DNA of 35,494 nucleotides from a virus (Duplodnaviria > Heunggongvirae > Uroviricota > Caudoviricetes), in IMG/VR virus record IMGVR_UViG_2724679140_000015; one strand, given 5' to 3'. The notes under the pieces are model-generated. The model was not told the DNA's origin and did not search any database. It saw nothing but the letters and a program-made list of their open reading frames with translations. Below, in pieces: positions 1-35,494 of this stretch (position 1 is its first letter; each line of letters begins with the position of its first letter). The translations under genes and the position numbers were made by a program.

Positions 1-270
1 TTAATGAGCGTCGATAAATACAATCTTCAGGATAAACATCAGCGCAACGATGATTACGCACGGGCTAAGGTCACGCAGACGCCCGGTACCAATCTTCATC
101 ACGCAGTAGGAGATAAAGCCCAGCGCAATACCTTCGGTAATCGAAAAGCTGAACGGCATCATCACGGCGGTAATAAACGCCGGAACAGATTCAGTAAGAT
201 CCTGCCAGTTCACGCGAGCAAGACTTGAGGTCATCAACACGCCAACGTAGATCAACGCGCCAGCTGCAGC
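1..270 (-). pseudogene. 3' fragment of a host membrane transporter gene (resembles the C-terminus of NCS2/AzgA-type purine permeases), apparently truncated by prophage insertion
   Basis: Minus-strand ORF ending with a stop at 1-3; hydrophobic transmembrane-like sequence; the frame only stays open to ~327 by read-through into phage terminal sequence. Family assignment is from memory of permease C-termini. Confidence 0.4.
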
Positions 271-279
271 TGATGCGGC

Positions 280-312
280 GCGAGATAAATAACACAAAAA
301 AGCGAGATAAAT
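280..312. repeat. Two 11-bp direct repeats GCGAGATAAAT (280-290, 302-312), 22 bp start-to-start; candidate transposase binding sites at the prophage terminus
   Basis: Exact repeat read directly from sequence; the spacing matches the ~22-bp periodicity of Mu end-binding sites. Confidence 0.5.
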
Positions 313-6952: not shown

Positions 6953-9417
6953 CAGCTGTACTCCTTACGTTGTTTCTGAATCAGCAGACGCTCCAGCATT
7001 TTTTCCAGCTCATGCAGGCTCATATTCAGGGCACCAGTCAGCCCGGCAGGCGCTGCGGTTTCCTTACCATTGAGGAAAAACTGAGGATTAAAGCTGATCT
7101 GGATACTGCCAGACGTTCCACCGCCAGTGGCAGTTGCTCCACGGCCTGAATATCCGGCAGTCATAATTTCCGGCGACGGGATACGGGGAACATCCGGTGT
7201 CATTTCAGCGGCCAGACGCTGCCCGGCCAGAGCTGCAAGCGGAGTGGTTCGTTGCAGGCCAATGGCGGCCCCCTGTGCGATATTGTCACCAAATCCCATA
7301 AATACTCGACTCGGTGAATGGATGCCCAGCTTTTCGCTGAACCAGCCACTGATGCTGTCACTCATTTCGGTTATGCTGGTTTTGAGCGACTCCCATTTGT
7401 TTCTGATGCCATTTATCAGCCCGTCGATAAGATGACCACCGAAGTCGGTGAACTTCGTCGGCAAATCAACGCCGAGATATTTCAGCGCAGCTGCAAAGGC
7501 TTTATAAAGCAGCCCCGCAGGAGACCAGTTAACCAGCAGTTTACCAATTCCCACTATACCGCCGTTAAAGGCTTCTTTAATGTCAGCCCAGCGCTGTTTA
7601 AACCAGCTACTGACTGCGCCCCAGTTACGGTAGATAAGGTAAGCTGCTGCCGCAACGGCGGTGATAGCGAGACCGATGGGATTCATCAGCAGCGCCCGGC
7701 CAATCCAGAGAACGGCACGCCCGGCGATCATAATGCCGCGAACCAGCCCCCCTGAGAGCACACTACCCAGTGTTCTGGCTCCTCTGGCGACGGCACCAAA
7801 ACCTGTCACCAGCCAGCGGAGCTTACCGCCTTCCCCCAGTGCAAGCGTCAGACGAAGCCAGTTGGCCCGAAGCAAAACAGCATTTTTCCAGACGCTTACA
7901 AAGGGGGAAATAAGGAGATTCAGCCCAAGCTTGAGACCGATAGTGGCCATCCTGAAAGCGAGTAATGCGCCCACAACCTTTATGGTGCTGCTGACGAGCT
8001 GCGGATTTGCCGCTATCCATTTGCCAACGCTGTCCATTAAAGGAATAAATGTTTCACCCAACTGGAGCAAAGCCGGACGCAAGGATTGCCCGATGCTGAT
8101 AGCAGAATCATTAAAGCCGATCTGCATTCTGCGCCAGCGACCTTCAAGCGTATCATTCTGCTTTGCAGCATCCTTATCCAGGGTAGACATTGCAGCCGGA
8201 GCATTCATTTCCTGCTTACTGGAAAGGTATTTATCCCAGCCCTGTCGCATTGACAGTAAATGGTTGACAGTCTGAATATCGGTAAAGACCTCAGCCAGAC
8301 CAAATGACTCCATGAGTTTCTGCTGACCTTCCTGATCGCCTCTTGCTCCTGCGACTTTCCATTGCTGCAAAAACGCTTTGCCTTTACTGTCGATAAAACG
8401 GTTGGCAATCATCAGTGAAGCTTCGTACTGCGAAAAACCCTGAGCGACGTAATTCTGCATTGACCCCTGGTAATCTACCCCGGCTTTAGCATATTTCTGG
8501 ATGGTATCTCCGCGGCCCATCGCTGCCAGCCAGTTGGACATATTGGTGACCGCTTCCTCTGCAGAGCCACTACCTTTACCGACCTCCAGACTGGCAACAA
8601 TCTGGGTAATTGCATCTTTTCCATAAATGCCACGAGCAGCGAAGGCTTTAGCCATACCGGGTAATGCTTTTGCCATATCCTTCAGCTCAAATGACCCAAG
8701 TTTGGCTCCTGTTGCCGCAATACCAAACGCCTGTTCCAGTTCTTTCGCATCGGTGATTCTGAGCGCATCGCTGAAGGCATAAGTCATTTTGGCAAGGTCG
8801 GTCATATCGGCTTTGGTTGCTGTAGCGGTCTTTCCAAGCATCTCTGCAAACGTTGCTGCCCGTTCAGGGGCCATACCATCAGCAACTAATTGTCCGACTC
8901 CCCCTAACAGAGACTCCTGCAGTTGGTTAACCTTCAGTGCGGCCTGTCTGATAGCCAAGCCAATTGCACGTTCCTGTTTTGCATCCAGGTCTCCTGTGAC
9001 ACTGATATCCCGCAACTGTGATTCAAACGAGGCATATTGTTTAACCGAGGCTATGACCGGTGCGCCCAGCGTTCTGCCAATAGCATAGGTTTCTGCACCC
9101 TGACCATAGAGCGCCATGCGGTTAGCCTTCAACGCATCATCGGTGGCTGATACTGCTGACAGACGGCGCTGCTGACGTTCAATTTGCTCCATGGTGCGGC
9201 TTACCCGCAGCAACTCGCTGTTGAGACGCTGCATCCGGGAAGAACCCAACTGACCATAACGTTCTGTTGCCCGGGTTAAGGCATTCTGACGTTCCTGCAG
9301 ACGGCGGGAGGTATCACCAAGGGAATCAAGGGCGCGTCGGGTGCCACTGACGGCTGAGCGGAAGCTGCTCCCGACAATGCCGCCAATAATGACGCCGACT
9401 GAAAATTCACTGGCCAC
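6952..9417 (-). CDS. tail tape measure protein
   Basis: 821-aa ORF with long alpha-helical region and C-terminal hydrophobic/Gly-rich segments; follows chaperone ORFs. Confidence 0.7.
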   Translation of the reverse strand: MASEFSVGVIIGGIVGSSFRSAVSGTRRALDSLGDTSRRLQERQNALTRATERYGQLGSSRMQRLNSELLRVSRTMEQIERQQRRLSAVSATDDALKANRMALYGQGAETYAIGRTLGAPVIASVKQYASFESQLRDISVTGDLDAKQERAIGLAIRQAALKVNQLQESLLGGVGQLVADGMAPERAATFAEMLGKTATATKADMTDLAKMTYAFSDALRITDAKELEQAFGIAATGAKLGSFELKDMAKALPGMAKAFAARGIYGKDAITQIVASLEVGKGSGSAEEAVTNMSNWLAAMGRGDTIQKYAKAGVDYQGSMQNYVAQGFSQYEASLMIANRFIDSKGKAFLQQWKVAGARGDQEGQQKLMESFGLAEVFTDIQTVNHLLSMRQGWDKYLSSKQEMNAPAAMSTLDKDAAKQNDTLEGRWRRMQIGFNDSAISIGQSLRPALLQLGETFIPLMDSVGKWIAANPQLVSSTIKVVGALLAFRMATIGLKLGLNLLISPFVSVWKNAVLLRANWLRLTLALGEGGKLRWLVTGFGAVARGARTLGSVLSGGLVRGIMIAGRAVLWIGRALLMNPIGLAITAVAAAAYLIYRNWGAVSSWFKQRWADIKEAFNGGIVGIGKLLVNWSPAGLLYKAFAAALKYLGVDLPTKFTDFGGHLIDGLINGIRNKWESLKTSITEMSDSISGWFSEKLGIHSPSRVFMGFGDNIAQGAAIGLQRTTPLAALAGQRLAAEMTPDVPRIPSPEIMTAGYSGRGATATGGGTSGSIQISFNPQFFLNGKETAAPAGLTGALNMSLHELEKMLERLLIQKQRKEYS

Positions 9418-25343: not shown

Positions 25344-25537
25344 GGTATTAGTAACTCCCTTTAATTGTCGCCCATGAAATATGCAAATAACATGAAAAGA
25401 GCGACTCACCTTGTGCAGCGAACACAAGGCGAGTCATCAACTTACAGGTATGAGCTGTGAGTCAACCGAGGCTCTTCCGTTCTCGAGAACAAGGGAAGCC
25501 TATCGCATTTTCATCTAATGAAAAAGGCTTACAGATA

Positions 25538-26302
25538 ATGAAAGAACAATCTTTACCCATCGTCCCCTGGATTGGGGGAAAACGTCGTCTGGCCAAACAC
25601 ATTCTGCCCCAGTTCCCACTCCATACCTGCTATGTGGAGCCATTCTGCGGCGCAGCAGCACTTTATTTTCTCAAGACTCCCAGCAAGATCGAAGTCATTA
25701 ACGATATCAACGGTGAACTGGTAAATCTGTATCGGGTAGTAAAGCATCATCTGGAAGAATTTGTCCGCCAATTCAAATGGGCGCTGGTTAGCCGGCAGAT
25801 CTACAAATGGCAGCAGATCACCCCGGAAGAAACACTGACGGATATCCAGCGTGCGGCACGGTTCTACTACCTCCAGAAGCAGGCGTTTGGGGGCAAGGTG
25901 GCAGAGCACAGCTTCGGCACCTCCACCACCTCCCCGCCACGCTTCAACCTGCTCCGGATTGAAGAAGAACTGTCAGCGGCACACCTGCGGCTTTCCAGAA
26001 CGGTGATAGAACACATGGACTGGCACCAGTGCATTAAGCGTTATGACCGTCCGCACACGCTGTTCTACTGTGATCCGCCCTATCTGGGGACGGAAGGCTA
26101 TGGTGTGGATTTTCCTGAAGAGAACTACACACTACTCGCAGAACTGGCACGGTGCATCAGAGGAAAGATGATTATCTCGGTGAATGACATTCCGCAGATG
26201 CGTCGGGTGTTCACTGAACTGAACATACAGACGGTGAATATCAACTACAGTCTGGCGGGGAAACCCACGCCGCGCCGTGAACTGGTAATCTGCAACTTCT
26301 GA
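25538..26302 (+). CDS. orphan Dam-like N6-adenine DNA methyltransferase
   Basis: N-terminal PWIGGKR and FCGAAA (AdoMet-binding-like) and catalytic DPPY motif; start at ATG 25538 preferred over GTG 25457. Confidence 0.7.
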   Translation: MKEQSLPIVPWIGGKRRLAKHILPQFPLHTCYVEPFCGAAALYFLKTPSKIEVINDINGELVNLYRVVKHHLEEFVRQFKWALVSRQIYKWQQITPEETLTDIQRAARFYYLQKQAFGGKVAEHSFGTSTTSPPRFNLLRIEEELSAAHLRLSRTVIEHMDWHQCIKRYDRPHTLFYCDPPYLGTEGYGVDFPEENYTLLAELARCIRGKMIISVNDIPQMRRVFTELNIQTVNINYSLAGKPTPRRELVICNF

Positions 26303-26308
26303 AACAAA

Positions 26309-26333
26309 ACCGGAAAGCACAATGCTTTCCGGT
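26309..26333 (-). terminator. hairpin (11-bp stem) followed by T-rich tract on the minus strand; likely terminator downstream of the repressor gene
   Basis: CCGGAAAGCA-CAA-TGCTTTCCGG read directly; minus strand continues TTTTGTTTC. Confidence 0.4.
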
Positions 26334-26418
26334 AAACCAAACAACTTCCACTATGTCACTGGCGATGTTTTCTGAAAGCATCCAGATCAACCACGCGCCC
26401 TTTGTGTCCAGGTCAAAA

Positions 26419-26757
26419 TCAGCCTGCGAGTTTGCTTGGTTTGGGTTGAATGAAGACTTTGCCGACCTCAAGAATTGCCCTCCGTTGTTCGGGGCTCATT
26501 TCGTCGAATGCATCCATTAACTCTTTCTTTTCTTGTGACACATAAGGTGCAACAACAGGCTGACTCCGCACCCCAGTAACTACATACAAAATATCTACAC
26601 CGATTTCTGATAGTGCAGATAACTGCACTGCAGTAGGAGAAGTGCGATCTTTTTCCCAATCAATGAAAGTTCTCTTTGCCACACCTATAGCATCAGCCAA
26701 CCCTTGCTGTGTAAGAGATAGACGCTCTCTTTCTTCTTTAATACGTAACCCGATCAT
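26419..26757 (-). CDS. phage repressor, XRE-family helix-turn-helix
   Basis: HTH-like LSLTQQGLADAIGVAKRTFIDWE; divergent from the ner-like gene; start at ATG 26757 preferred because the ORF-track start (26910) overlaps ner by 50 bp. Confidence 0.5.
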   Translation of the reverse strand: MIGLRIKEERERLSLTQQGLADAIGVAKRTFIDWEKDRTSPTAVQLSALSEIGVDILYVVTGVRSQPVVAPYVSQEKKELMDAFDEMSPEQRRAILEVGKVFIQPKPSKLAG

Positions 26758-26781
26758 GTGAGTTTTTCTGCACTCTTTAAG

Positions 26782-26810
26782 TTGACTGGTGAGATAATCT
26801 GCACCATAAT
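26782..26810 (+). promoter_or_regulatory. candidate early promoter (TTGACT-17 bp-CATAAT) with repeated ATAATCT motifs (operator candidates)
   Basis: Sigma70-like hexamers read directly, ~45 bp upstream of the ner-like start. Confidence 0.35.
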
Positions 26811-26857
26811 CTATCACACATAAGGCAAACATCATTGCATCAACAAAGGAGACAACG

Positions 26858-27046
26858 ATGACTGCAGAACAAGTCAAAGCTCTCTTCCGCCAGCGCGGGA
26901 TCACCTTCACCCGCTGGGCAGAAGAAAACGGCTACAACCGCAATGAGGTATACCGCGTTCTCAATGGGCAGACCAAAGCCCGTTACGGTAAATCCCATGA
27001 AATCGCCGTGAAGTTGGGGCTGAAATCAACAGCTCAGGCAGCCTGA
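26858..27046 (+). CDS. ner: Ner-like DNA-binding protein
   Basis: 62-aa ORF with Ner/Nlp-like pattern; AAAGGAG RBS 5 nt upstream; first gene of the rightward early block. Confidence 0.55.
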   Translation: MTAEQVKALFRQRGITFTRWAEENGYNRNEVYRVLNGQTKARYGKSHEIAVKLGLKSTAQAA

Positions 27047-27098
27047 AGATTTTGAGTCTTTGTAAAAGGTTATCACATATCGCAAAAGAGGTATGCAG

Positions 27099-27407
27099 AT
27101 GAGTAAGACGAATGTTTCAAGCTCCGGCAGTCGCATCCTCCGGGTACTCAAAGCGCTGCGCGGTCATGCCCTGAACGGTATTTCCAACGGTGAACTGGCG
27201 GCAGCACTGCACGAGTCACCGGCAAACATCAACCGGGCACTCAACACCCTCATTGAAGAAGGGTTGGCCCTGAAACTGGAAAACGGGCGTTTCGCGCCGG
27301 GCATCCAGTTACTGCAGATCGCTATGGCCCACAGTAACGAGATGGCACGTGCACAGGATCGCATTAACGAAATCAACCAACGTGTCATTTCAGGTAGTCG
27401 TTTGTAA
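27099..27407 (+). CDS. putative winged-helix DNA-binding protein
   Basis: RILRVLKAL...ISNGELAAAL...INRALNTLIEEGL resembles a MarR/IclR-type wHTH; RBS AAAGAGG 7 nt upstream of ATG 27099. Confidence 0.4.
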   Translation: MSKTNVSSSGSRILRVLKALRGHALNGISNGELAAALHESPANINRALNTLIEEGLALKLENGRFAPGIQLLQIAMAHSNEMARAQDRINEINQRVISGSRL

Positions 27408-27417
27408 GGAGTAATAA

Positions 27418-28329
27418 ATGGGACGCACCAAATCACCGATTAACACTGAACTGAACGCCGAGGTACCGCTGTCGGATGATCTCAATGTCAGTCTGAACGC
27501 CATGACACAGCATCGCATGGAGATCATGCAGCAGTTTGGCGATGGTCAGCCCTATGAGCGTGATCGCATAGTTCATGAGGCTCGGTTTTATATGGCACAG
27601 AGCGCTGAGGCCATGCTGGAAGCAGGTAAACGACTTATTATTCTCAAAGAAAATGAACCACACGGGGACTTTGTTGGAATTGTAGAAGAACAACTTGGTC
27701 TGCATGTGCGCGCAGCACAACGAATGATGAAAGCATCTTTGAAATACCTTTCACCAAAACTAGAGCCAAAAGCGACAACGTTGTCGCTTTTAGGTAAGGC
27801 AAAATTATTTGAACTTGTTGCTGAAGATGACGACGACCTTGCTGAACTGGCCGACGGCGGCACAGTCGCAGGACTGACGCTTGACGATGTTGATCGCATG
27901 TCAGTACGTGAATTGCGTCAGGCCCTGCGCGAAGCGCGCGAAACCAACGCAGCACAACAGCGCGTACTCGCCGACAAAAATGAAAAAATAGACTCACTCT
28001 CCACCAGACTGGAGAAGAAATCCCGTATTCAGCCGCCTGAGCCTGATGAGGAGGTTAAGAAGCTGCGGGCGGAAGTAACAGCATTAGCGGTTGAGGCGGA
28101 ATCTGCTATCGCCGTTCGACTGTCCAGCGCTTTTGAGACACTGTGCGCATATTGTGCTGAAAACATGATTGATACCCCCAGAGATTTCATGGCAGGCCTG
28201 GTCTGTCAACTGGAAAGCACAGCGCGTAGCCTGCGCTCCACATTTGACCTGCCGGACGAGCCAACAGGCAATGCAGCGCCTTCATGGCTGACTGAGCCGA
28301 CGCCACAGATTAACGGGCTGGAGGCATAA
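27418..28329 (+). CDS. hypothetical early protein
   Basis: 303-aa ORF with TAAGGAG RBS; sits between ner and the transposase gene. Confidence 0.4.
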   Translation: MGRTKSPINTELNAEVPLSDDLNVSLNAMTQHRMEIMQQFGDGQPYERDRIVHEARFYMAQSAEAMLEAGKRLIILKENEPHGDFVGIVEEQLGLHVRAAQRMMKASLKYLSPKLEPKATTLSLLGKAKLFELVAEDDDDLAELADGGTVAGLTLDDVDRMSVRELRQALREARETNAAQQRVLADKNEKIDSLSTRLEKKSRIQPPEPDEEVKKLRAEVTALAVEAESAIAVRLSSAFETLCAYCAENMIDTPRDFMAGLVCQLESTARSLRSTFDLPDEPTGNAAPSWLTEPTPQINGLEA

Positions 28330-28332
28330 CCA

Positions 28333-30102
28333 ATGAATGCTGCCCTGACTGAACGACTGGTTTATGTCGCCCGCGCGGCACGTGACGCGGGGCATGGTAA
28401 ACGCGGTGCAATATACGACGCTGCCTGTGCTGAACTTGGCATGTCCCGCGCCACTCTGCTGCGCAGGCTGAAGGAGGTCTCTGTGACTGATAAACGCAAA
28501 AAACGCGCCGATGCCGGGCGCAGCGCCCTGACCCGCGACGAAGCCGCGCTGATATCTGCCACACTGCGTGAGGCCACCCGCAAGAACGGTAAGCGTCTTT
28601 ATTCCATCGCGGATGCAGTGGAAACCCTGCGGGCTAACGGCTTTATCTCCGCAGGCAGAACAGATGAAACCACCGGTGAGTTTTTCCCGTTGTCCGAAGA
28701 TGCCATCAGTCGTGCCCTGCGTAACTATGGCCTGCACCCGGAACAACTGGATGCCCCTGCACCGCATACCGAAGTGGCCAGTCTGCACCCCAATCATGTC
28801 TGGCAGATTGACGCCTCACTATGCACGCTTTACTACCTGAGCAATGGACATAAAGGGCTGCAGGTGATGGACAGCGCGAAATTCTACAAGAACAAGCCCG
28901 CTAACCTTGCCCGTATCGCCAGTGACCGCGTGTGGAGTTACGAGATTACCGACCATGCCAGCGGCTGGATTTACGTTGAGTATGTGACGGGTGCGGAATC
29001 CGGTGAGAACCTGTGTTCTGTGCTTATCAACGCCATGCAGGAGCGCGGTGGCGCAGACGTGCTGCACGGCGTGCCGAAAATACTCTATCTCGACCCCGGT
29101 TCGGCGAACACCGCGGGTATGACGAAAAACATGTGCCGCTCACTGGGCATCGACCTGATAGCGCACAGGCCGCATAACGCCCGCGCCACCGGACAGGTGG
29201 AAAAGGCGCGTGACATTATCGAACGCAAGCTGGAGCCGGGTCTGAAGTTCCGGCCGGTTCACAGTCTGGAAGAACTCAACGCGCTGGCCGCGAAATGGCG
29301 CAGCCACTTTAACGCCACGGCTGTTCACAGCCGCCACGGTAAAACCCGCACGGATATCTGGCTGAAGATTACTGCTGAGCAGCTGAAAAAAGCGCCTTCC
29401 GTTGAGGTATGTCGTGAACTGGCTGTGGCGGCACCAGAACTCCGCAAAGTCACGCCAAAACTTCGTGTCTCGTTCCGGGGCACTGAATTTGACGTATCAA
29501 CGGTACCGGGCGTACTGGTCGGTGAAAAACTGATGATTACCCGTAACCCGTGGCGCAGCGATGTGGCACAGGTGGTTCTGACCGGTGAGGACGGCCACGA
29601 GACGTTCTTCCTGGTCGAAGAGGTCAGAAAGAACGAGTTTGGCTTTGCTGAAGGCGCGGCGGTATTTGGCGAAAGTTACAAAGCCCTGCCGGAAACCCCG
29701 GCGCAGATGGCGGCAAAAGAAACCGAAGCGCTGGTCACCGGTACAGACAACGCCGCAGATGCAGCTGCCGCACGCAAGGCGAAGGCACTGCCGTTCGGCG
29801 GACGACTTGACCCGTATAAACATATTGATGACGCCACACTTCCGGCCTATATGCCGAAGCGTGGTCAGGCCTCTGACGTACGCGGGCCGCGCACTGAACA
29901 ACGTCCCATGACTCATGTGGAGGCCGCGAAAGCCCTGCGCGATAAGTTCAGCGCCAACGGCCTTACCTGGACGCCGGAACATTACCGCCAGTTAACGGCA
30001 CAGTACCCGGACGGCGTACCGGAAGCCGCACTGGATGAAGTCATGGCCACGCTGACCACGCCGGTCCGCAGCAGTGTTATCAGCATTGTTAACGGCAACT
30101 GA
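28333..30102 (+). CDS. DDE transposase A (retroviral integrase-fold)
   Basis: 589-aa ORF with N-terminal HTH-like region and catalytic-core-like WQIDAS...ITDHASG motifs; followed by the ATPase gene. Confidence 0.75.
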   Translation: MNAALTERLVYVARAARDAGHGKRGAIYDAACAELGMSRATLLRRLKEVSVTDKRKKRADAGRSALTRDEAALISATLREATRKNGKRLYSIADAVETLRANGFISAGRTDETTGEFFPLSEDAISRALRNYGLHPEQLDAPAPHTEVASLHPNHVWQIDASLCTLYYLSNGHKGLQVMDSAKFYKNKPANLARIASDRVWSYEITDHASGWIYVEYVTGAESGENLCSVLINAMQERGGADVLHGVPKILYLDPGSANTAGMTKNMCRSLGIDLIAHRPHNARATGQVEKARDIIERKLEPGLKFRPVHSLEELNALAAKWRSHFNATAVHSRHGKTRTDIWLKITAEQLKKAPSVEVCRELAVAAPELRKVTPKLRVSFRGTEFDVSTVPGVLVGEKLMITRNPWRSDVAQVVLTGEDGHETFFLVEEVRKNEFGFAEGAAVFGESYKALPETPAQMAAKETEALVTGTDNAADAAAARKAKALPFGGRLDPYKHIDDATLPAYMPKRGQASDVRGPRTEQRPMTHVEAAKALRDKFSANGLTWTPEHYRQLTAQYPDGVPEAALDEVMATLTTPVRSSVISIVNGN

Positions 30103-30112
30103 GGAGGAAAAC

Positions 30113-31279
30113 ATGCTGGTACTGAAGCAGCAACTGAAAGAGGCCCGTATCCCACAGGCGGTGGTGGCGAGAGCTGTCGATGTTTCTGAGGCCACGCTGG
30201 CCCAGATTGTGAATCATAACGCGTGGCCCCGCACCCGCCCCGGAGAAGTGCGCCGGCGTCTTGCGTCCTGGCTGGAAAGTCAGGGGATTGATACAACGAA
30301 GAGTTTTGATGCTGTACAGGGCGCGGCCACGCCCCGTACAGCGGGTACCACAGATAAAACGAGCCTCAGTGAGGAAGAGAATATGTTACTCAAAAAACAG
30401 GTGTTATTTCCAGCAACCAAAAAAGCGTTTGGTCTTTTCCGTGACCCGTTCGCCGACGAAGCCATGCAGGGTTCTGATGATGTGTTCACCACCCCGGACA
30501 TCCGCTATGTGCGTGAAGCGCTGTACCAGACAGCCCGTCATGGTGGGTTTATGGCCGTCATCGGTGAGTCCGGTGCGGGCAAATCCACGCTGCGCCGCGA
30601 CCTGACTGAACGAATCAACCGCGAGAATGCGCCGGTAATTGTTATCGAGCCATACGTCATCGCTATGGAAGACAACGATGTGAAAGGGAAAACTCTGAAG
30701 GCAGCAGCGATTGCCGAAGCCATTATCAGTACCATTGCACCACTGGAAAGCATCAGACGCAGTCAGGACGCCCGCTTTCGCCAGTTGCATCGCGTCCTGA
30801 AAGACAGCAGCCAGGCGGGGTTCAGCCACGTTCTGGTGATTGAGGAGGCCCACAGCCTGCCCATTCCGACACTGAAACACCTCAAACGCTTTTTTGAGCT
30901 GGAGTCCGGTTTCAAAAAACTGCTGTCCATCGTGCTGATTGGCCAGCCGGAACTGGCGACAAAACTGTCTGAACGCAATATGGAAGTCCGTGAAGTCGTT
31001 CAGCGCTGTGAGGTGGTCGAACTTCTGCCTCTGGACAATCACCTTGAAGAGTTTCTGACGTTCAAACTGCAACGGGCCGGTAAACAACTGACGGACATTA
31101 TGGACGCCAGCGCAGTGGATGCCATACGTGCCCGCCTGAGCAATCCGGGAAGTCATCGTAAAAACAGGGTCAGCCTGCTGTATCCGCTGGCCGTCAGTAA
31201 CCTGGTAATAGCCGCCATGAATCTGGCTGCTGAAATCGGGGTTCCACAGGTCAACGCTGACGTTGTCAAAGGGGTTTAA
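30113..31279 (+). CDS. transposition ATPase B (AAA+, MuB/TniB-like)
   Basis: Walker A GESGAGKST; N-terminal HTH-like segment; GAGGAGG RBS 5 nt upstream of ATG 30113. Confidence 0.7.
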   Translation: MLVLKQQLKEARIPQAVVARAVDVSEATLAQIVNHNAWPRTRPGEVRRRLASWLESQGIDTTKSFDAVQGAATPRTAGTTDKTSLSEEENMLLKKQVLFPATKKAFGLFRDPFADEAMQGSDDVFTTPDIRYVREALYQTARHGGFMAVIGESGAGKSTLRRDLTERINRENAPVIVIEPYVIAMEDNDVKGKTLKAAAIAEAIISTIAPLESIRRSQDARFRQLHRVLKDSSQAGFSHVLVIEEAHSLPIPTLKHLKRFFELESGFKKLLSIVLIGQPELATKLSERNMEVREVVQRCEVVELLPLDNHLEEFLTFKLQRAGKQLTDIMDASAVDAIRARLSNPGSHRKNRVSLLYPLAVSNLVIAAMNLAAEIGVPQVNADVVKGV

Positions 31280-34477: not shown

Positions 34478-34682
34478 ATCTGTTGTATGTGCCCTGTTCT
34501 GGTATTGTTTTGTCGGTTGGTGTACTGCTGAACTGCAGCGCCGTTCAGGGTTTTATTCACGTTACAGTGGTGCCGGCTACTGGATTAGCTGGTCGGTGAT
34601 GTTCCTGTGCTGGCCTGTGGCGCTTCCTTTATATGTCGATTATATCGGTGGCGCAGGTAAAAGGAGCAACGATGATGACTAA
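34467..34682 (+). CDS. small membrane protein
   Basis: Two hydrophobic, Trp/Cys-rich segments; start at internal ATG 34467. Confidence 0.3.
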   Translation: MTAESVVCALFWYCFVGWCTAELQRRSGFYSRYSGAGYWISWSVMFLCWPVALPLYVDYIGGAGKRSNDDD

Positions 34683-35124
34683 ACAACGTCTTATCCAGCT
34701 CATTCATATTGCCCGTAATGAACTGGGTATGGATGAAGACACCTACCGCCAGATGTTAGAGGGGCTGACCGGTAAAGCCTCAACCAAAGGAATGGATACC
34801 ACACAACTAAACTGCGTGCTGGAATCCATGAAAAGGAAAGGCTTTCGCGTTAAGCCTGCCGGAAAAGCCAGCTCCGGTTTACAGCTGGATAACCATCCGC
34901 AGTCCAGGAAAATCCGTGCGCTATGGCTTGAAATGGCTGCTGCCGGCATTGTTCGTGACCGTTCAGAAAATGCATTAGCGCGGTGGATCAAGCGGGAAAC
35001 GGGCATCAGCGCCCTGCGCTGGCTCAGTACTGAACAGGCAAGCAGTGTTATTGAGAAACTGAAGAAGTGGCAGCGCAGAGCTGCGGGAGTAAAACATGAG
35101 CGACCTGAATCAGTTTCGAAGTAA
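34672..35124 (+). CDS. GemA-like protein (Mu gp16-like)
   Basis: Located immediately upstream of the Mor-like gene as in Mu; AAGGAG RBS 5 nt upstream of ATG 34672. Confidence 0.5.
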   Translation: MMTKQRLIQLIHIARNELGMDEDTYRQMLEGLTGKASTKGMDTTQLNCVLESMKRKGFRVKPAGKASSGLQLDNHPQSRKIRALWLEMAAAGIVRDRSENALARWIKRETGISALRWLSTEQASSVIEKLKKWQRRAAGVKHERPESVSK

Positions 35125-35494
35125 AGGGCCGGAACTCCTGGTGGAACTGGCACAGCATACCTCTGAGACCGTTCGCGAGATTATTGATATTGAGCCCGCA
35201 ATTGCCGACCAGATTGGTCAGGCCGTCGCGAACCGAATGATGCAGGTCTGGGGCGGGCAAAACGTTTATTTCCCGATGGGCATGGTATGGAAGGTCAGTC
35301 AGCGCGACCGGGAAATCTTCAGGGAGTTTAACGGACGCAACCACCACGAACTGGCCCGCAAGTTTGGTGTTTCGCTTCAGTGGGTCTACAGCGTGGTTAA
35401 GCGGGTCAGAAAAGAAGAACTGGATCGGATGCAGGGCAGGTTGTTTGATGAAGATCTGCCAGAGGAGACGAAAGACGTTAACAAATCCAGATAA
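35096..35494 (+). CDS. mor: Mor-like middle-operon transcription activator (Mor/C family)
   Basis: 132-aa ORF with C-terminal HTH-like region (GRNHHELARKFGVSLQWVYSVVKRVR); position after gemA-like gene. Confidence 0.55.
   Translation: MSDLNQFRSKGPELLVELAQHTSETVREIIDIEPAIADQIGQAVANRMMQVWGGQNVYFPMGMVWKVSQRDREIFREFNGRNHHELARKFGVSLQWVYSVVKRVRKEELDRMQGRLFDEDLPEETKDVNKSR

Follow-up and report, generated by a model that had tools for sequence, protein, structure and literature searches.

The window analysed here, 35,494 nucleotides of viral DNA (IMG/VR record IMGVR_UViG_2724679140_000015), carries a BcepMu/B3-type transposable prophage in which two genes lie between a Cro/Ner-like gene and the transposase gene tnpA. 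The first open reading frame (ORF1) encodes a winged helix-turn-helix (wHTH) protein of 102 amino acids (aa) and the second (ORF2) a 303-aa acidic protein that, by its profile matches, is a member of the DUF3102 family. A previous reading of this region, made from the sequence only, had presented the pair as extra genes with respect to phage Mu. The gene pair in itself is commonplace. What is new is a perfect, gapless 26-bp palindrome embedded in the coding sequence of ORF2, which is the most informative feature of the 303-aa gene and was absent from that reading. The palindrome is conserved in position among relatives, its two arms change in concert and, judged from the sequences compared, it tracks the DUF3102 protein and not the neighbouring wHTH protein. 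We propose, giving the idea about an even chance of being right, that ORF2 would be a dimeric DNA-binding protein whose cognate site lies in its own gene and which would regulate or organise the downstream transposition genes. Such an embedded covarying palindrome appears to be undescribed in the literature searched.

The ORF2 palindrome is the longest of the 35.5-kb window, where it is unique, and none of 100 shuffles gave a match. Likewise, the longest palindrome of the complete BcepMu genome is a unique 30-mer placed at the same position in gp10; neither further copies nor half-sites were found in the window or in the BcepMu genome. The relatives compared comprised 80 IMG/VR loci, the phages B3, BcepMu, PM105, phiSHP3, D14K and KS10, and five divergent members from metagenome contigs. 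A gapless palindrome of 20-30 bp was present at that position in 75 of the 80 IMG/VR loci (at least 11 of 12 arm matches) and also in B3 and phiSHP3. A strong palindrome was lacking in PM105 gp13, which differs in this from the window, and also in KS10 gp15, two of the further loci (L089 and L090), the Clostridium perfringens plasmid p5 and a Latilactobacillus phage. Alignment of the 42 distinct variants showed that 95.2% of the cells were paired, compared with 30-53% in slid registers, and that 10 out of 14 pairs had changed on both sides; none of 500 shuffles reached the observed values. The innermost pairs were never broken; column pair 19/22, for instance, was GC in 26 variants, AU in 15 and UA in one, and unpaired in none. 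The central four bases were always self-complementary, being ACGT, GCGC or TTAA, and the A/G...T/C central pair switched jointly on several arm backgrounds without ever being broken.

The peptide encoded by the palindrome varied freely (KATTLSLL, KRSALSVL, NVPTLAHL, KAQALALL) and the symmetry was kept, which indicates that the selected object is a nucleic-acid dyad and not the peptide. Coding constraint was thus ruled out as the cause of the palindrome, both by this free variation and by the centre, whose covariation spans one Thr/Ala codon and one synonymous Leu codon. The perfect symmetry could owe something to template-switch homogenisation.

A conserved dyad inside a transcribed gene might act as RNA, either as a small intrinsic terminator or attenuator or as an mRNA-stabilising hairpin, limiting read-through to tnpA and tnpB of transcription begun at the early promoter and so holding the transposase at a low level. 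It would do so independently of both proteins, whose role would then be that of ordinary early regulators at other sites. The element has the composition that this requires, with an A-tract (A4), a GC-rich stem and UUUU, a predicted hairpin of -16.8 kcal/mol and compensatory changes that are compatible with an RNA stem. A terminator scan also flagged it, but on the minus strand alone; on the plus strand the stem is followed by only 4 U. The upstream A-tract is conserved equally with the downstream T-tract, although there is no leftward transcription to terminate. The bases that would form the loop covary without exception, and the arm mismatches showed no G-U preference on the sense strand. 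Besides, in most phages the element is part of translated sequence, so that the stem would be melted by ribosomes; it keeps the same codon position relative to the helix-turn-helix (HTH) in Proteobacteria and Firmicutes, it has dispersed extra copies in some genomes and it gave no Rfam match in a scan of 26300-28500. We therefore consider a purely RNA-based function quite unlikely: the self-complementary centre, the equally conserved A- and T-tracts and the lack of G-U bias argue for a duplex-DNA dyad and not for an RNA hairpin only.

The position of the copies outside the usual place in the gene bears on the same question. In one locus (L093), a 23-bp palindrome was present in three copies, two between the wHTH and the DUF3102 genes and one within the DUF3102 gene. 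The two tandem intergenic copies, each reading GCGCCG-UAA-CGGCGC-UUUU in RNA, stand at a plausible place for an attenuator and as such favour the RNA explanation. In another locus (L094), the site is located 5′ of the DUF3102 gene instead of inside it, and it is identical over 26 bp to the in-gene site of a third locus (L062) whose DUF3102 protein is 42% identical. These extra and displaced copies, together with those of a 47-kb contig described below, point to a protein-binding site. The 47-kb viral contig, IMGVR_UViG_2506783054_000001 (handles L107, L110 and L126), carries four dispersed copies of the CAAATCCGACAACGTTGTCGGATTTG type, one of them within the DUF3102 gene and one in a gap that separates divergent ORFs, an arrangement reminiscent of a regulon or of a group of centromere sites.

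The association between DUF3102 genes and embedded palindromes extends beyond transposable phages. Gapless palindromes of 24-28 bp were found at the equivalent post-HTH place in the DUF3102 genes of a Levilactobacillus plasmid, Bacillus phage IEBH, Streptococcus thermophilus phage 5093 and an Alicyclobacillus plasmid. The site of phage 5093, CCAAATTCGACAACGTTGTCGAATTTAG, almost matches that of the window; CAAATGTGCCAGCGCTGGCACATTTG is an example of a palindrome heterologous to the one in the window. In these Firmicute contexts the DUF3102 gene comes after cro or has antirepressor or replication genes nearby. The reverse search gave a consistent picture, since AAANNCGACAACGTTGTCGNNTTT occurred 51 times in 2.9 million viral contigs and 33 of these occurrences fell within DUF3102-like ORFs of proteobacterial or Firmicute type. 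Four more were located about 1.4 kb from a DUF3102-like ORF. In four contigs (L106 at 8111-8175, L138 at 9853, L146 at 851 and L123 at 9251) we also observed the same palindrome core within or next to an ORF of 151 aa, with a weak DUF3102-like ORF about 1.4 kb away; in L106 there are two copies 41 bp apart.

Two proteins encoded next to each other could read the site. One possibility is that the 102-aa wHTH protein binds the palindrome and that the acidic DUF3102 protein is a partner that does not bind DNA, such as a scaffold, an antirepressor or a DNA mimic. The wHTH protein is strongly basic (isoelectric point, pI, 10.7) and its wHTH match is genuine, the DUF3102 domain is acidic, and the copies of L093 and L094 that lie outside the DUF3102 gene stand just 3′ of the wHTH stop codon. 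Palindromes of 16-24 bp are the typical targets of small wHTH dimers. However, wHTH proteins 99-100% identical to that of the window occur with three different arms, GCGACAAC, TGTGCCAG and ACGCTCAG, so that the wHTH protein is not the specific reader, and we rejected it in that role. In phage 5093, as in plasmid p5 (which has no palindrome), the annotation shows no wHTH gene between cro and DUF3102, and the reverse search ties the site to DUF3102 ORFs. A reading of the palindrome by the wHTH protein is accordingly very improbable.

The arms correlated one-to-one with the class of the predicted DUF3102 recognition helix, even between distantly related pairs: helices of the classes ...RAA..., ...RTA..., ...RIA... 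and K(S/T)TA were accompanied by GACA, GC(A/C)A, GAAA and TCCCA, respectively. The residues that the palindrome itself encodes were the most informative on the half-site; next came the protein columns V97 and Q101, both in the predicted recognition helix. These two outranked equally close residues downstream of the site, with linkage and shared ancestry as confounders of the comparison.

Assignment of ORF2 to DUF3102 relies on several matches. The protein scored 24.2 bits against PF11300 (E 4.2e-5), 0.2 bits below the gathering cut-off of 24.4, and the same profile matched 31 of 34 homologous N-domains. Relatives exceed that cut-off, precomputed PF11300 matches exist on those with 90% identity, an identical protein is named DUF3102 in its sources, and a Firmicute DUF3102 protein used as a tblastn query recovered the homologues of Klebsiella phage KP12 and B3. 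The family is large, with 1522 cluster representatives at 50% identity. The sequence-only reading had called the product acidic and helix-rich, and this description holds: the pI is 4.83, with 52 D+E against 36 K+R, and the AlphaFold2 model is all helical with a mean predicted local distance difference test score of 91.8. The parts of the model, which include an HTH-like pair of helices and a long antiparallel coiled-coil hairpin, are listed in the table below. B3-like phages of the D14K/JBD25 type retain the C-terminal third (hhalign probability 98.5) and have a divergent N-terminal domain, in which an HTH-like segment occupies the corresponding place, so the architecture of ORF2 is modular. 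The segment comprising the HTH and the site (residues ~81-140) varies more than any other part of the module, which is otherwise conserved, and this suggests a specificity determinant.

Searches for a known fold or family gave negative results. In ORF2, Pfam profiles matched neither a ParB/Srx (CTP-binding) domain nor Phage_rep_O or Phage_rep_org_N, and a scan with E values up to 1 of the 34 N-domain homologues recovered neither ParB nor KorB, nor any other HTH family that recurs. Comparison of the ORF2 sequence and of a 60-sequence profile with PDB sequences returned coiled-coil noise only, and a homologue search with the domain profile returned mostly gene fragments. Long homologues carry N-terminal extensions of 90-260 residues, several of them Cys-rich, in which no Pfam family was matched. 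In the Paenibacillus phages C7Cdelta and Ash (H106 and H107), a DUF3102-like match lies under genes annotated as DNA methylase, which suggests fusion of a DUF3102 N-domain to a methyltransferase. Homologues of the 303-aa protein should not be labelled 'ATPase involved in DNA repair'.

According to the model that we favour, ORF1 and ORF2 would be co-transcribed with tnpA and tnpB. ORF2 would contain an N-terminal HTH domain, possibly of ParB/KorB-like fold, and its coiled-coil hairpin would make the protein a dimer. This dimer would bind the palindrome at 27767-27792, about 20 codons 3′ of the recognition-helix codons and 540 bp 5′ of tnpA, protein and site thus forming a tightly linked specificity cassette. 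Two roles can be envisaged for the bound dimer. It may feed back on its own expression and on that of tnpA/tnpB, as an operator or a roadblock (role a), or it may nucleate a complex with transposition proteins through the conserved C-terminal module (role b), as a split analogue of MuA domain I-alpha and the Mu enhancer that the shorter transposase may lack. The occurrence of DUF3102 with palindromes in Firmicute phages and plasmids implies that the ancestral role was not specific to transposition, which favours role a or a general organiser.

Role b, taken as the whole explanation, is the architectural version of the same proposal. DUF3102 protein and palindrome would constitute a transposition enhancer system, equivalent to MuA domain I-alpha acting on the Mu internal activation sequence, and the C-terminal module would bring in TnpA or TnpB, or align them, as the transpososome is assembled. 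The transposase aligns to positions 129-687 of the 696 of phrog_310, so that nothing in it corresponds to the first ~128 positions of the profile, and its catalytic core is preceded by only ~150 residues. The DUF3102 gene is always directly 5′ of tnpA and translationally coupled, and KS10, with another type of transposase and no wHTH gene, yet has a gp10-like (DUF3102-like) gene directly 5′ of its transposase gene. Retention of the C-terminal third where the N-terminal domain has been replaced (D14K/JBD25) is as expected of a partner-binding module, and the window and BcepMu have a single site per genome. On the other side, the same embedded palindrome occurs in non-transposable Firmicute phages and plasmids, beside cro, antirepressor or replication genes, and the interaction of DUF3102 with TnpA or TnpB is purely hypothetical. 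Mu has its enhancer about 1 kb in from the left end; the palindrome, unlike it, is at least 7.7 kb from the nearest phage end. We regard a dedicated enhancer function as rather unlikely.

Our broader proposal, that of a dimer with its site in its own gene, could be extended in a speculative manner. DUF3102 proteins with gene-embedded palindromes might represent a widespread, undescribed cassette of temperate phages and plasmids of Proteobacteria and Firmicutes, a specificity module complete in itself, serving as a KorB-like operator or as a centromere- or origin-like anchor, and recruited in BcepMu/B3-type phages as an enhancer-equivalent organising site for a Tn552-like transposase devoid of an enhancer-binding domain. 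We hold this extension to be unlikely as a whole. In any case, the palindrome provides the large DUF3102 family, present in early operons of temperate phages and of plasmids from two phyla, with a directly testable hypothesis, that of a sequence-specific dimer whose site travels in its own gene. If true, it would reveal a new specificity determinant of mobile elements, apparently hypervariable between otherwise near-identical prophages, and would identify a missing cis-acting site for the control or the mechanics of Tn552-type phage transposition.

Regarding the gene pair itself, two ORFs do separate the Cro/Ner-like gene from the transposase gene, as had been proposed. They are conserved, co-oriented early genes that are translationally coupled. 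The ORF1/ORF2 gap is 10 nt and ORF2 ends 3 nt before the transposase ATG (28333), which makes ORF1, ORF2 and the transposase gene one tight operon. The ATG at 27099 is the better start of ORF1, since AGAGG precedes it by 8 nt and the product then agrees in length with its homologues (101-102 aa). Both ORFs matched PHROG profiles (ORF1, phrog_1368 'transcriptional regulator', 9e-45; ORF2, phrog_1748, 1.9e-140), the pair was present in 633 out of 5426 complete Escherichia coli genomes (~12%), and these are genuine genes and not chance ORFs. Proteomics of an E. coli strain detected a 'DUF3102 domain-containing protein', the adjacent HTH protein and Gam (PMC9927464), which we matched to the present genes by product name and gene order only.

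The winged-helix character attributed to the ~100-aa product was confirmed, as ORF1 matched the Pfam families HTH_IclR (27.3 bits, cut-off 22; residues 14-59) and HTH_24 (23.7 bits, above its cut-off). Nearly all of its 302 homologues are 100-103 aa long. A full-length IclR protein has about 250 aa, and the Pfam scan found no IclR C-terminal effector domain in the 102-aa ORF1; the label 'IclR family regulator' on phage records, which applies to the wHTH part only, overstates ORF1 and should be avoided by annotators. The best matches among PDB sequences were weak and corresponded to wHTH regions of the MarR family (E 0.2-0.7). As a small basic wHTH DNA-binding protein, ORF1 probably acts as a dimeric regulator, most simply a second early regulator.

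The homology and synteny comparison showed that both genes belong to the standard core early genes of BcepMu/B3-type phages. The order wHTH, DUF3102, rve tnpA and AAA_22 tnpB was kept in all 80 IMG/VR loci wherever the contig spans it, and also in B3, BcepMu, PM105, phiSHP3, D14K and four of the five divergent metagenome-contig members. In the fifth (L089), the gene upstream of the DUF3102-like gene gave no wHTH match. Homologous pairs are ORF14+ORF13 in B3, gp12+gp10 in BcepMu, gp14+gp13 in PM105 and orf18+orf17 in phiSHP3, with identities to B3 and BcepMu of 57% and 34% for ORF1 and of 54% and 43% for ORF2. The ORF1 homologue is directly 5′ of the DUF3102 gene in the related loci that reach far enough, occasionally with one small ORF between them, and the repressor/gp16 region upstream is mosaic among the IMG/VR loci. 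Small inserted ORFs of 70-105 aa occur at variable points of the module (Escherichia phage PhiKM, L003, 5921-6238, 105 aa; BcepMu gp11, L002, 4556-4768; L094, 4867-5100) and are absent from the window. The window therefore shares with B3 and BcepMu the gene order directly 5′ of the Tn552-like transposase and AAA_22 genes, as well as the palindrome at the same codon position, and differs from them in being a minimal version without the CII-like gene (B3 ORF15, BcepMu gp13) and without the small ORFs (BcepMu gp11, the 105-aa ORF of PhiKM). No function is assigned to the homologues of B3, BcepMu, PM105 and phiSHP3 in the records or literature searched, and we found no functional description of either gene in the literature searched on DUF3102 or on BcepMu/B3-type phages. 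The genes are thus standard early genes with no known role in that literature. Of the functions originally suggested, regulators of transposition or lysogeny or accessory early functions, that of regulators or accessory factors of transposition is plausible.

Features of the early region and of the window ends
Feature	Position	Strand	Remarks
Candidate transposase end-binding repeats	280-290, 302-312		Exact copies of GCGAGATAAAT
Dam-like methylase gene	25457-26302	+	
Hairpin	26309-26333		ACCGGAAAGCA-caa-TGCTTTCCGGT, 11-bp arms
XRE-type repressor ORF	26419-26910	-	Listed from a GTG overlapping the gp16-like gene
16-nt direct repeats	26758-26773, 26789-26804		GTGAGTTTTTCTGCAC and GTGAGATAATCTGCAC; flank the early promoter candidate
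Candidate rightward early promoter	26782-26810	+	TTGACT-17-CATAAT; 10/12 consensus matches; consensus match only
62-aa Cro/Ner-like HTH gene (BcepMu gp16 family; 'ner' of the sequence-only reading)	26858-27046	+	TIGR04111, 97 bits, 3.2e-28; phrog_925, 3.8e-33
ORF1, basic winged-helix protein	27093-27407 as listed (104 aa); 27099-27407 preferred (102 aa)	+	
ORF2, acidic DUF3102-family protein	27418-28329	+	303 aa; AAGGAG 6 nt 5′ of the ATG
ORF2 model, N-terminus	residues 1-20		Low confidence, without secondary structure (disordered)
ORF2 model, helical domain	residues ~21-160		Single helix 21-40; HTH-containing part ~41-162; HTH-like pair 82-92 and 97-110
ORF2 model, hairpin	residues 163-204 and 209-248		Long antiparallel coiled coil
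ORF2 model, C-terminal part	residues 255-276		Further helix, then conserved tail
Perfect gapless 26-bp palindrome	27767-27792		Halves CAAAAGCGACAAC and GTTGTCGCTTTTA; ORF2 codons 117-125, just past the predicted recognition-helix codons
Transposase A, rve (Tn552/BcepMu-type)	28333-30102	+	589 aa; rve, 2.7e-9; phrog_310, 3.2e-147
AAA_22 ATPase, analogue of transposition protein B	30074-31279	+	AAA_22, 3.3e-20; phrog_296 'DNA transposition protein', 1.2e-93
Inverted repeat within the AAA_22 gene	30312-30341		CTGTACAGGGCG-cggcca-CGCCCCGTACAG, 12-bp arms, 6-nt spacer
GemA gene	34633-35124		
Mor-family activator gene	35096-35494		

Among phage records, those closest to the window are Escherichia phage PhiKM (92% DNA identity), which is classified under Bcepmuvirus, Klebsiella phage KP12 and Phi06_2974 B. 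The element has the order leftward XRE-type repressor, candidate promoter, gp16-like gene, ORF1, ORF2, rve transposase and AAA_22 ATPase, beyond which follow a kil-like 89-aa ORF and Gam and, farther, GemA and Mor at the window end. The transposase is 56-69% identical to those of B3 and BcepMu, and in its Pfam scan rve alone was matched, with no Mu-specific domain. The likely true start of the repressor is the ATG at 26757 (MIGLRIKEE..., 112 aa), which leaves a 100-bp regulatory gap before the gp16-like gene, with the direct repeats and the promoter candidate inside it; a repeat scan of 26.3-27.45 kb yielded candidate repressor operators only. The listed start of the AAA_22 ORF is a GTG, which makes it overlap the tnpA end. 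The homologue of PhiKM starts 11 nt past the transposase stop and, in agreement with this annotation, the true start is probably the ATG at 30113 (MLVLKQQ...).

A few further elements of the window were recorded. The inverted repeat within the AAA_22 gene is the second-best of the window. The hairpin that separates the Dam-like methylase stop from the end (26419) of the leftward repressor gene has the appearance of a bidirectional terminator. Positions 1-312 include apparent flanking host DNA at the start, as judged by the sequence and a change in ORF pattern alone, and the phage end is apparently near 272 (TGATGCGG...). The GCGAGATAAAT motif, whose two copies lie close to that point, was not enriched elsewhere in the window. 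The last codon of the window is the stop of the Mor-family gene, which GemA precedes, and this places the second phage end beyond the window.

Comparison with known systems begins with Mu, which the sequence-only reading had taken as the reference. The early region resembles that of Mu (c, ner, A, B) in having a repressor opposed to a Cro/Ner-like gene, followed by transposase, ATPase, a kil-like gene and gam, and farther on gemA and mor. We know of no genes between ner and A in Mu. However, the window differs from Mu in its Tn552/rve-type transposase, whose match to phrog_310 is confined to 129-687. The 62-aa gp16-like protein scored 17.9 bits against the Ner family of Pfam, HTH_35, under the cut-off of 25. 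Neither a HTH_35 Ner nor a MuA-type transposase with the Mu-specific N-terminal HTH domains was found, and no Mu record was among the organisms listed in the search with the 303-aa protein. Since the transposase is not MuA and its profile match starts at position 129, Mu is the wrong reference for calling the two genes extra: the element is a BcepMu/B3-type prophage, of which the pair is core equipment, and not a Mu derivative with insertions.

The association of a palindrome with the gene of its putative binder recalls the KorB/ParB family, whose members bind palindromic operators or parS; in Bacillus subtilis, parS sits inside spo0J. In ORF2, whose gene is likewise associated with a conserved, covarying palindrome, no ParB/Srx domain was matched. 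A further analogy is with initiators that have their binding sites in their own gene, such as lambda O with ori-lambda, SPP1 G38P with oriL and the lactococcal replisome organisers. It is an analogy of layout only, because ORF2 contains a single dyad, without an iteron array or an AT-rich region, and matches neither Phage_rep_O nor Phage_rep_org_N; moreover, a transposable phage such as Mu replicates by transposition and needs no origin. Nevertheless, as in lambda O, G38P and the replisome organisers, the cis site lies in the coding sequence of its putative binder and the gene is directly 5′ of the replication machinery, here that of transposition. Firmicute DUF3102 genes adjoin replication genes. 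Finally, as in those systems, the putative N-terminal DNA-binding part and the site vary together as a cassette, whereas the C-terminal part of the protein is conserved.

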